From Escherichia coli (GTDB taxonomy: Bacteria; Pseudomonadota; Gammaproteobacteria; Enterobacterales; Enterobacteriaceae), in the NCBI RefSeq assembly GCF_024502345.1, contig NZ_JALDNN010000001.1: a DNA stretch of 64,000 nt. One strand, written 5' to 3'. Within the stretch, counting starts at the first letter, position 1. Every line of letters starts with the position of its first letter. Of the stretch, positions 7,275 to 12,083 are shown piece by piece. The position numbers were made by a program, and so were the translations under genes. The notes under the pieces are model-generated. The model searched no databases, was not told the DNA's origin, and saw nothing but the letters and a program-made list of their open reading frames with translations.

Positions 7275-7300
7275 AAAACCGGGGCCATGCGCTCCGGTTT
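7275..7300. terminator. Bidirectional hairpin between convergent dppF and yhjV
   Basis: aaaaccggggccatgcgctccggttt inverted repeat. Confidence 0.45.
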
Positions 7301-8359
7301 ACTCAATCAGCTTCAACAGTGGCGACAAGCATAGCAAAATGCCGTAAAGCAGAATTAGCCAGGCTTTAAATCCGCGAAGTTTTTCCAGTTGTGCGACTTT
7401 ATAGATCAGGAAAAACGGAATGAGGCACGACACAATGCCATATAACGGGCTTCCCAACTGAAAGAACACCAGCACCGATACACGAAACGAAACCCAAATC
7501 GTCAACGTAATGACGATAAAAGCGCAGATCGCCAGAGTCAGCATGCGTGAGTTAATTTTCTTGGTATCAATAATTCGGCTTAACAGATTGAGAATAATGC
7601 CTTTAATAGCCTCGTGGAAACCGAGATAAATGCCAAAGAATGCGGTCAGTACGGCAAAGATATTCAGCACCGTAGAGGTGATATGAATGATATGTCCAGG
7701 GATCACCTGCGCGGCCAGTGCCAGTGCCGAGATATTTTGTTCAAAGGCAGAAACGGCTTCTTCGTGGCTAATTGAGAAGGTAAACGAAAAGGCAAAAAAC
7801 AGGATCACCGCGATGAGCGTGATATAACTAATTCGATGGGTACGCAGCGCGAGCCGGGTTGCCAGTACTTTATCTGCTTCCCGTTTACGATAGGCAATAT
7901 TCATTGGGTTAAGTACCTGAATAAATACCGCAGAAAAGAAGCAAAATGGAATGGTAAGCAGGACATCGCGGAAAAAGACGGAGGCTTGCGGGAAGGCGGT
8001 TATATTGGCGAAATTCCAGTGCGGGATCATCGCAAAACCGAACACGACAATAATCCCTACTTTGACCACCACCATTGGCCCAGAAATCTTAAACAGTAAT
8101 CGTTCACCACCAGACGCAATCGCTACCAGTACGGCGAAAATAGCGACTTTATAAAGTAGAGATTGTGAAAGATCGGCATCGGTTAAACCGAAGGTTTTCA
8201 GGTACGAGGCGCTGTCGAAAACCACGGAGAGAGAGTAGATAAAAATCCCGTGGATAATCATCAAAAAGTAGATAACCCCGAGGAAAATTCCCCAGTTCTT
8301 CCCCAGGTAATGACTGATAATATCGGTGTAGTCATTACAGGAATCGCTTTCAGAAAGGG
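7299..8359 (-). pseudogene. yhjV: Putative HAAAP-family amino-acid transporter, 5'-truncated by IS1
   Basis: Polytopic membrane ORF; reading frame stays open upstream of the first in-frame start up to the IS1 left end at 8360; K-12 YhjV is ~423 aa from memory, so ~70 N-terminal codons are missing. Confidence 0.7.
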
Positions 8360-8414
8360 GGTGATGCTGCCAACTTACTGATTTAGTGTATGATGGTGTT
8401 TTTGAGGTGCTCCA

Positions 8415-8690
8415 GTGGCTTCTGTTTCTATCAGCTGTCCCTCCTGTTCAGCTACTGACGGGGTGGTGCGTAACGGCAAAAGCACCGCCGGACATCAGCG
8501 CTATCTCTGCTCTCACTGCCGTAAAACATGGCAACTGCAGTTCACTTACACCGCTTCTCAACCCGGTACGCACCAGAAAATCATTGATATGGCCATGAAT
8601 GGCGTTGGATGCCGGGCAACCGCCCGCATTATGGGCGTTGGCCTCAACACGATTTTCCGCCATTTAAAAAACTCAGGCCGCAGTCGGTAA
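8415..8690 (+). CDS. insA: IS1 InsA
   Basis: 91-aa ORF with C-x2-C...C-x2-C zinc-finger N-terminus. Confidence 0.93.
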
Positions 8691-9112
8691 CCTCGCGCAT
8701 ACAGCCGGGCAGTGACGTCATCGTCTGCGCGGAAATGGACGAACAGTGGGGATACGTCGGGGCTAAATCGCGCCAGCGCTGGCTGTTTTACGCGTATGAC
8801 AGGCTCCGGAAGACGGTTGTTGCGCACGTATTCGGTGAACGCACTATGGCGACGCTGGGGCGTCTTATGAGCCTGCTGTCACCCTTTGACGTGGTGATAT
8901 GGATGACGGATGGCTGGCCGCTGTATGAATCCCGCCTGAAGGGAAAGCTGCACGTAATCAGCAAGCGATATACGCAGCGAATTGAGCGGCATAACCTGAA
9001 TCTGAGGCAGCACCTGGCACGGCTGGGACGGAAGTCGCTGTCGTTCTCAAAATCGGTGGAGCTGCATGACAAAGTCATCGGGCATTATCTGAACATAAAA
9101 CACTATCAATAA
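8609..9112 (+). CDS. insB: IS1 InsB reading frame (expressed as InsAB' by -1 frameshift)
   Basis: 167-aa ORF in -1 frame relative to insA; A6C slippery run at 8666-8672. Confidence 0.88.
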
Positions 9113-9127
9113 GTTGGAGTCATTACC

Positions 9128-10013
9128 GGATTCCGGTGCCAGCGTGGCGGTCGGCTGGCGAAATGACGTCTGGAGCTGGGATATCGGTACCACGCCGATG
9201 GGCTTCAACGTGGTGGATGTGGTCGGCGGCATCAGTTACAGCGATGATATCGGGCCGCTGGGTTACACCGTTAACGCCCACCGTCGGCCCATCTCCAGTT
9301 CTTTGCTGGCCTTTGGTGGGCAAAAAGACTCCCCGAGCAATACCGGGAAAAAATGGGGTGGCGTACGTGCCGACGGTGTGGGGCTAAGTCTGAGCTACGA
9401 TAAAGGTGAAGCAAATGGCGTCTGGGCATCGCTTAGTGGCGACCAGTTAACCGGTAAAAATGTCGAAGATAACTGGCGCGTGCGCTGGATGACGGGCTAT
9501 TACTATAAGGTCATTAACCAGAACAATCGCCGCGTCACAATCGGCCTGAACAACATGATCTGGCATTACGACAAAGATCTGAGTGGTTACTCACTCGGTC
9601 AGGGCGGTTACTACAGTCCGCAGGAATACCTGTCGTTTGCCATACCGGTGATGTGGCGGGAGCGCACGGAAAACTGGTCGTGGGAGCTGGGGGCGTCTGG
9701 CTCGTGGTCGCATTCACGCACCAAAACCATGCCGCGTTATCCGCTGATGAATCTGATCCCGACCGACTGGCAGGAAGAAGCTGCGCGGCAATCCAACGAT
9801 GGCGGCAGCAGTCAGGGCTTCGGCTATACGGCGCGGGCATTACTTGAACGACGTGTTACTTCCAACTGGTTTGTCGGCACGGCAATTGATATCCAGCAGG
9901 CGAAAGATTACGCCCCCAGCCATTTCCTGCTCTACGTACGTTATTCCGCCGCCGGATGGCAGGGTGACATGGATTTACCGCCGCAGCCGCTGATACCTTA
10001 CGCCGACTGGTAA
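9128..10013 (+). pseudogene. bcsC: Cellulose synthase outer-membrane subunit BcsC, 3'-terminal remnant only
   Basis: ~295 C-terminal codons in frame immediately after the IS1 right end; the rest of bcsC and the upstream bcs genes are absent. Confidence 0.8.
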
Positions 10014-10094
10014 GTTTTCAGATAGCGCCTCTCTTAATGCCGCTGCGATCGGGTATACTCGGGCGGCAATCTGGGATTTCCGGGGGGAGACAAT

Positions 10095-12083
10095 TTGCGC
10101 GTAAGTCGCTCGTTAACAATCAAGCAGATGGCAATGGTGGCAGCCGTTGTCCTGGTGTTCGTTTTTATTTTTTGCACCGTTTTGCTGTTCCATCTGGTCC
10201 AGCAGAATCGCTATAACACGGCTACGCAACTGGAAAGCATTGCTCGCTCTGTCCGCGAACCTTTATCTTCAGCCATTTTGAAAGGTGATATTCCCGAAGC
10301 GGAAGCTATTCTTGCCAGCATTAAACCGGCAGGCGTGGTCAGCCGTGCCGATGTAGTGCTGCCCAACCAGTTCCAGGCGCTGCGTAAAAGTTTTATTCCA
10401 GAGCGCCCGGTGCCGGTAATGGTTACTCGCCTGTTTGAGCTACCGGTTCAAATCTCGCTGGGCGTTTACTCGCTCGAACGTCCGGCAAATCCGCAGCCAA
10501 TTGCCTATCTGGTGCTACAGGCGGATTCCTTCCGTATGTATAAGTTCGTGATGAGCACCCTCTCAACGTTAGTGACCATTTACTTACTTTTGTCGTTAAT
10601 ATTGACGGTGGCGATTAGCTGGTGCATTAACCGCCTGATTTTGCATCCGTTACGCAATATTGCTCGCGAACTTAACGCCATCCCAGCCCAGGAGCTTGTT
10701 GGTCACCAACTGGCATTACCGCGTCTGCATCAGGATGATGAAATCGGTATGTTGGTGCGCAGTTACAACCTCAACCAGCAATTGCTGCAGCGCCATTATG
10801 AAGAACAGAACGAAAATGCGATGCGCTTCCCAGTGTCGGATTTGCCGAACAAAGCCTTGCTGATGGAGATGCTGGAGCAGGTTGTCGCGCGTAAACAAAC
10901 CACCGCGCTGATGATCATCACCTGTGAAACCCTGCGTGATACTGCGGGTGTGCTGAAAGAGGCGCAACGAGAAATTCTGCTGCTGACGCTGGTGGAAAAA
11001 CTCAAATCGGTACTGTCGCCACGTATGATCCTCGCGCAGATTAGCGGTTATGACTTTGCTGTCATTGCCAATGGTGTACAGGAACCGTGGCACGCAATCA
11101 CCTTAGGTCAGCAAGTGCTCACTATCATGAGCGAGCGCCTGCCGATTGAACGTATTCAACTCCGTCCGCACTGTAGCATTGGCGTGGCGATGTTCTACGG
11201 CGATCTCACCGCCGAACAGCTTTACAGTCGCGCTATTTCTGCGGCATTTACCGCTCGCCATAAAGGCAAGAATCAGATTCAGTTCTTTGATCCGCAGCAG
11301 ATGGAAGCCGCCCAGAAGCGGTTGACGGAAGAGAGCGATATCCTTAATGCACTGGAAAATCATCAGTTTGCTATTTGGTTACAGCCACAGGTCGAGATGA
11401 CCAGCGGTAAACTGGTCAGTGCGGAAGTGTTACTGCGTATCCAGCAACCGGATGGCAGTTGGGACCTGCCGGATGGCTTAATCGAGCGCATTGAGTGCTG
11501 TGGGCTGATGGTTACCGTCGGTCACTGGGTGCTGGAAGAGTCCTGTCGATTGCTTGCAGCCTGGCAAGAGCGCGGCATTATGCTGCCCTTGTCGGTAAAC
11601 CTCTCTGCGCTGCAACTGATGCACCCGAATATGGTGGCGGATATGCTGGAACTGTTAACCCGCTATCGCATTCAGCCGGGAACACTGATTCTGGAAGTGA
11701 CAGAAAGCCGACGTATTGACGACCCTCATGCTGCGGTGGCAATCCTCCGTCCGCTGCGCAATGCTGGAGTTCGGGTGGCGCTGGATGATTTCGGCATGGG
11801 CTACGCAGGGCTGCGTCAGCTGCAGCATATGAAATCGTTGCCAATCGACGTTCTGAAAATCGACAAAATGTTTGTTGAAGGCTTGCCGGAAGATAGCAGC
11901 ATGATTGCTGCAATTATCATGCTGGCGCAGAGCCTGAACTTACAAATGATTGCCGAAGGCGTGGAGACTGAAGCACAACGCGACTGGCTGGCAAAAGCGG
12001 GCGTTGGTATTGCCCAGGGCTTCCTTTTTGCTCGTCCACTCCCTATTGAAATCTTCGAAGAGAGTTACCTGGAAGAAAAGTAG
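10095..12083 (+). CDS. pdeK: c-di-GMP phosphodiesterase, HAMP-GGDEF(degenerate)-EAL membrane protein
   Basis: 662-aa ORF with N-terminal TM segments and C-terminal EAL domain; start ambiguous (TTG at 10095, ATG at 10128). Confidence 0.85.

Follow-up and report, generated by a model that had tools for sequence, protein, structure and literature searches.

A TTG codon as the very probable translation start of pdeK (hmsP) in Escherichia coli

The pdeK locus and its candidate start codons

The window, by which we mean the whole 64,000-nucleotide stretch of Escherichia coli DNA that was analysed, carries the gene pdeK downstream of a remnant of bcsC. The features that bear on the translation start of this gene are the following.

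10014..10094, plus strand: bcsC-pdeK intergenic region of 81 nt, with a conserved block that includes the -10-like TATACT at 10054-10059
10082..10090, plus strand: Shine-Dalgarno sequence GGGGGGAGA, in which GGAG ends 5 nt 5' of the TTG (duplex -9.4 kcal/mol)
10095..10097, plus strand: TTG, the favoured initiation codon of pdeK, to be read as fMet; first start codon of the ORF, and the start indicated by PGAP, by tetracycline ribosome profiling (TetRP) and by metagenomic sequences
10095..12083, plus strand: pdeK (yhjK, hmsP) CDS, 662 aa, GAPES3-HAMP-degenerate GGDEF-EAL (NF008807, Pfam)
10098..10127, plus strand: codons 2-11, a short, positively charged, predicted cytoplasmic N-tail with residue conservation, third-position changes and R2, R5 and K10
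10128..10130, plus strand: ATG codon 12, probable internal methionine and the alternative start of the initial annotation; no Shine-Dalgarno sequence and no TetRP site
10131..10193, plus strand: predicted first transmembrane helix (TM1), approximately residues 13-33 (Kyte-Doolittle maximum 3.14)
10134..10136, plus strand: ATG codon 14, probable internal methionine and the start annotated in K-12 in 2006 (649 aa); TetRP 0/0/0

Reading the sequence directly bears out the initial annotation in that the longest pdeK ORF (10095..12083, 662 aa) opens with TTG at 10095-10097 and that the ATG at 10128-10130 is in frame as codon 12, 11 codons past the TTG, with a product of 651 aa; both coordinates and lengths were right. 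Further in-frame candidates had been passed over, namely ATG 10134 (codon 14, 649 aa), GTG 10137 and GTG 10155. The closest in-frame stop 5' of the TTG is 60 nt away with no start codon in between, and the start region reads ...CCGGGGGGAGACAAT TTG CGC GTA AGT CGC TCG TTA ACA ATC AAG CAG ATG GCA ATG GTG... An in-frame ATG as close to the start as this, 11 codons away, is no more than chance would give. The region also holds a 59-codon ATG ORF (10037-10216, plus strand) in another frame that overlaps the start of pdeK and is probably fortuitous.

The 662-aa product matches the NCBIfam HmsP equivalog NF008807 with 782.8 bits (cut-off 733, E = 2.3e-235), protein residues 2-659 aligning to profile positions 1-663 of 670, and Pfam places GAPES3 at residues 36-155, HAMP at 178-231 (below its cut-off), GGDEF at 247-394 and EAL at 415-648. 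SGYDF stands in place of GGDEF at residue 317 and, with two hydrophobic stretches, the protein has the architecture TM-GAPES3-TM-HAMP-GGDEF(degenerate)-EAL. It matches HmsP of the Enterobacterales over its full length. Klebsiella, Salmonella and Serratia have the motif MRV(S/R)RSLTIKQM at the N-terminus, the start at TTG and the bcsC-hmsP-dctA gene order in common with the window. Yersinia HmsP controls Hms-dependent biofilm and not cellulose. K-12 PdeK (YhjK, b3529/ECK3514) is the same gene, with the same start region, TTG codon, length of 662 aa and domain architecture, although the window protein has Q199 instead of K and the adjacent bcs genes are deleted in the window strain. The K-12 protein is an active phosphodiesterase (PDE) whose transmembrane regions dock it on cellulose synthase, PDE activity having been demonstrated in vitro for its cytoplasmic part (PMC7397504). 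The difference at residue 199 (10689-10691; Q in the window, K in K-12, within AIPAKELVGH of the TetRP table) is an ordinary strain polymorphism of the HAMP region.

The gene order bcsC-pdeK-dctA recurs in GF3-3, MC4100, Klebsiella, Salmonella, Serratia and Citrobacter, although bcsC is a remnant in the window, and the bcsC-hmsP(pdeK)-dctA region is at least 98% identical in 5,424 of 5,426 complete E. coli genomes. An IS1 element of 768 bp (8360-9127) stands in for 15,636 bp of GF3-3, a deletion of approximately 15.6 kb with flanks at 7299-8359 and 9128-10013. The lost segment comprises the first 211 nt (the 5' end) of yhjV, four copies of the ldr toxin gene, bcsGFE, bcsRQABZ and the first 2,587 nt of bcsC, which leaves pdeK intact beside an 886-nt bcsC remnant with its cellulose synthase partner genes gone. 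The 5,426 complete E. coli genomes contain no case of the deletion junction as one piece, and the window may therefore derive from a lineage that is Shigella-like or has not been sampled.

In the spacer between bcsC and pdeK, a block at 10023-10080 (TTTTCAGATA..CGCCTCTCTTAATGCCGCTGCGATCGGGTATACTC.GGCGGCA) shows no variation among Escherichia, Citrobacter and Salmonella, and its TATACT hexamer resembles a -10 element without a good -35. This block may serve pdeK as a promoter of its own or bind a regulator. A consensus scan of the plus strand of the spacer, of a kind that misses the conserved TATACT, returned no sigma-70 promoter or terminator. That the leader holds a riboswitch or another regulatory RNA was considered and rejected, there being no Rfam match at E <= 1 and a folding energy close to that of shuffled sequences (z = 0.23).

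Start-site profiling, annotation and ribosome-binding sites

Start-site ribosome profiling, which the initial annotation had named as one way to check the start, has been published for K-12 and points to the TTG (PMC4909307). In the TetRP data of Nakahigashi et al., yhjK is listed with a new initiation site at 3683641, a shift of -39 and the codon TTG (PMC4909307, Table S2 row 51), and the reads at this TTG are 37.6/53.1/21.1 versus 0/0/0 at the 2006 start, at a resolution of approximately one codon and for K-12 grown in a single condition. The 2014 record U00096.3 has its start at this same site; the start annotated in 2006 lay 39 nt further downstream, which corresponds to ATG 10134 of the window and a product of 649 aa (PMC4909307, Table S3). 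The K-12 result carries over to the window because MC4100, a K-12 derivative, is identical to it throughout the start region, nucleotide for nucleotide. The yhjK row of the TetRP table has no entry under N'-peptide (PMC4909307), the TRAINSPOTTER supplements hold no entry for pdeK/yhjK, and a literature search on the yhjK start codon returned nothing relevant.

A start at ATG 10134, as in the 2006 K-12 annotation (U00096.2), would have history on its side, and several gene callers still give products of 647 and 649 aa; entries beginning at M14 are found in databases for E. coli (649 aa), Citrobacter (649 aa) and E. fergusonii (647 aa). Against it stand the TetRP reads of 0/0/0 (PMC4909307) and the withdrawal of this start from the K-12 record, U00096.3 using the TTG. 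The RefSeq PGAP CDS likewise begins exactly at the TTG both in GF3-3, which is 100% identical here, and in MC4100. ATG 10128 could instead be the main start, with the TTG and codons 2-11 forming an untranslated leader that is open by chance. Genome-wide, ATG is favoured over the other start codons, and some orthologue entries do begin at M12 (Salmonella 657, Serratia 657, Edwardsiella 658, E. fergusonii 649 and Citrobacter 650 aa), the M12 and M14 entries coexisting in public databases with TTG-start forms. Nevertheless, the TetRP listing rule covers every in-frame NUG up to 60 nt away with median reads of at least 1, and the yhjK row flags no site at -6, the position of ATG 10128 (PMC4909307). 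The only sites given for yhjK are that at -39 and a second, weaker one at +21, which is GTG 10155 (PMC4909307).

This second site would suit a scheme of dual initiation, in which the TTG gives the main 662-aa form and ATG 10128, ATG 10134 or GTG 10155 a minor shortened isoform. Many E. coli genes have two start sites according to the same study (PMC4909307), and with a weak TTG, scanning 30S subunits could slip to the nearby ATGs. The profiling itself speaks against such slippage, with 0/0/0 at ATG 10134 and nothing at 10128 (PMC4909307), and GTG 10155 is considered further below.

Calculated for the 20 nt upstream against the 3' end of 16S rRNA, the anti-Shine-Dalgarno duplex at TTG 10095 has an energy of -9.4 kcal/mol, a strength found at only 0.7% of sampled window positions. 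For ATG 10128 the value is -0.4 kcal/mol, which 74.5% of window positions equal or better, so that this codon has no Shine-Dalgarno sequence upstream; ATG 10134 also lacks one (-2.2 kcal/mol). At GTG 10155 the duplex reaches -4.9 kcal/mol through an SD-like GGUGG, which is 13 nt off and counts against this codon as a second start. The TTG shows the marks of a canonical Shine-Dalgarno-led start, being an NTG that opens the ORF, with GGAG ending 5 nt upstream, inside the canonical range of 5-10 nt, and an initiation footprint in K-12. The combination of initiation signal, Shine-Dalgarno sequence and conservation that would identify an internal start was found neither at ATG 10128 nor at ATG 10134.

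Conservation and membrane topology of the N-terminus

Relatives of PdeK were collected by an exhaustive HMMER search against representatives of 50%-identity clusters, and ranged from 85% to 28% identity. Over this whole range most alignments open, in query and subject alike, at residue 1 or close to it. Aligned together, the sequences have the N-terminus MRV(S/R)RSLTIKQM down to 42-52% identity, and the motif is still recognisable at 28-31% identity (MRVRRSLTRKY, MQVQRSLTLTQL, MDLKQSLTFRQM), M1, L7 and T8 being almost invariant. M12 is well conserved among HmsP orthologues, a point in favour of ATG 10128, and position 12 is I, T or L in several distant relatives.

For comparison at the DNA level, orthologues were picked by whole-protein homology (loci L083-L093) from E. 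fergusonii, two Citrobacter, Salmonella, Klebsiella, Serratia, Edwardsiella and three more taxa at 46%, 42% and 31% identity. The homologous start codon is TTG in nine of the ten taxa and GTG in the remaining one (L089), and a Shine-Dalgarno sequence of the GGAG type (GGAG/GGGA) lies just 5' of the start in all of the orthologues compared. In four of them an in-frame stop is located 6, 12, 15 or 18 nt 5' of the start. Differences within codons 2-11 are mostly synonymous (CGC/CGG/CGA, GTA/GTT/GTC/GTG, TCG/TCA/TCC/TCT, TTA/CTT/CTG/TTG) and preserve the amino acids out to 31% identity. Both the stops immediately 5' of the TTG and this pattern of substitution argue against an untranslated leader followed by a start at ATG 10128. 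A contig search keyed on the generic EAL motif DDFG[MT]GY[AS] yielded 80 GGDEF-EAL loci that were unrelated, with no orthologue among them.

Metagenomic DNA was scanned with a pattern that begins at the second base of the start codon and leaves the first base free, giving at least 120 matches (L094-L213), 116 of those listed being usable. The pattern fixes codons 2-12, so that only the first base and the sequence 5' of it were sampled without bias; among the matches listed, the first base was T, and hence the codon TTG, in all 116 usable cases. Among the same listed matches, GGAG is present 5-9 nt upstream in 75 of 75 distinct orthologue sequences, and across the 75 distinct N-termini GGAGA at -11..-7 provides the sole conserved upstream positions, the stretch from -45 to -13 being essentially random (29% pairwise identity) and third codon positions being near saturation. 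Of the internal candidates, codon 14 is ATG in 44/75 of the sequences among the matches listed and otherwise encodes Thr or Ala (31/75), with Val in some E. fergusonii, while codon 21 is GTG in 38/75. Neither is conserved as a start, which counts against a shortened isoform from ATG 10134 or GTG 10155. The chance that ATG 10134 is the start of pdeK is virtually nil.

The position of the start also determines what precedes TM1. The initial annotation held that an ATG 10128 product would still begin ahead of the first transmembrane helix; this is correct, but by approximately one residue, and such a product would be without the cytoplasmic tail. All of the lysines and arginines before TM1 (R2, R5 and K10) are within residues 2-10, and a product beginning at M12 or M14 has no positive charge before the helix. 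According to the positive-inside rule, a positively charged tail of this kind sets the N-in orientation. The charge argument adds to the case against ATG 10128, which we regard as extremely unlikely to be the main start. GTG 10155 is located inside TM1, and a product beginning at V21 would keep 13 of the ~21 residues of the helix; this codon is probably not a functional start. Overall, we see only a slight chance of dual initiation at pdeK.

Translation of pdeK thus very probably starts at TTG 10095. The initial annotation had treated the start as ambiguous, and the raw sequence does permit at least two starts while databases hold shorter forms; the doubt is nonetheless settled by published profiling and current annotation, and the profiling, the strength of the Shine-Dalgarno sequence, the deep conservation and the logic of membrane topology agree on the TTG. 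In the mechanism that we propose, GGGGGGAGA (10082-10090) would place the 30S subunit so that initiation occurs at TTG 10095, read as fMet, to give the 662-aa PdeK, a predicted membrane-bound c-di-GMP phosphodiesterase. The first 11 residues would be a real and conserved part of the protein, forming a short cytoplasmic tail in which the charges of R2, R5 and K10 are predicted, from the positive-inside rule, to orient TM1 with the N-terminus inside. This orientation would leave GAPES3 in the periplasm and the HAMP-GGDEF(degenerate)-EAL module in the cytoplasm, and the ATGs at 10128 and 10134 would be internal methionine codons.

The start of pdeK at TTG is already known and an ordinary detail of annotation; the gene, its start and its function have been described previously. 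The practical value of the result is modest and it opens no new biology. The right N-terminus matters for cloning, tagging and topology models of PdeK/HmsP, and database entries that begin at M12 or M14 need to be cleaned up. Interpretation of expression levels is also affected, in that a TTG start would limit output.

Invariance of the TTG codon

UUG is a rare start codon in E. coli, used by only approximately 3% of genes (bioRxiv 10.1101/063800). Fitch parsimony on a neighbour-joining tree of 79 distinct pdeK orthologues assigns 0 changes to the first base of the start codon, 9-15 changes (mean 12.4) to five neighbouring four-fold sites and, on average, approximately 24 changes to upstream non-coding positions. 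Genome-wide, UUG starts change to AUG or GUG at 0.0316 versus 0.0658 for four-fold sites, or approximately half the rate (Belinky et al., 2017; PMC5622118). With these rates, approximately 4-6 switches would be expected at the pdeK TTG, and the Poisson probability of observing none is approximately 0.02-0.003. This suggests an invariance that goes beyond the behaviour of UUG starts in general, and we take it as suggestive only, because the sample was selected by pattern, parsimony undercounts changes and GTG or ATG is found in more distant relatives. Such non-TTG starts are the GTG of L089 and the ATGs of Balneatrix (L215) and of L216.

We tentatively raise the possibility, in which we place less than even confidence, that the rare TTG and the Shine-Dalgarno sequence of hmsP/pdeK are held by gene-specific selection across the Enterobacterales, as might be read from their conservation. 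The conserved weak TTG may keep the output of PdeK low. E. coli cyaA offers a precedent as the gene of a signalling-nucleotide enzyme with a functionally weak UUG start behind a good Shine-Dalgarno sequence; the parallel with pdeK, which likewise combines UUG with a good Shine-Dalgarno sequence in the gene of such an enzyme, is suggested on the pdeK side by sequence conservation. If selection of this kind does operate, inefficient and possibly IF3-sensitive initiation would keep a local c-di-GMP 'sink' at low copy beside its target complex.

Three Pseudomonas relatives also open with an apparent TTG start, behind AAGGAA. These GGDEF-EAL membrane proteins (L003 (1986), L028 (1995) and L044 (1980)) share 27-30% identity with PdeK, score below the cut-off of the HmsP equivalog and carry the related N-terminal motif LKLELKNSLSVKLL.
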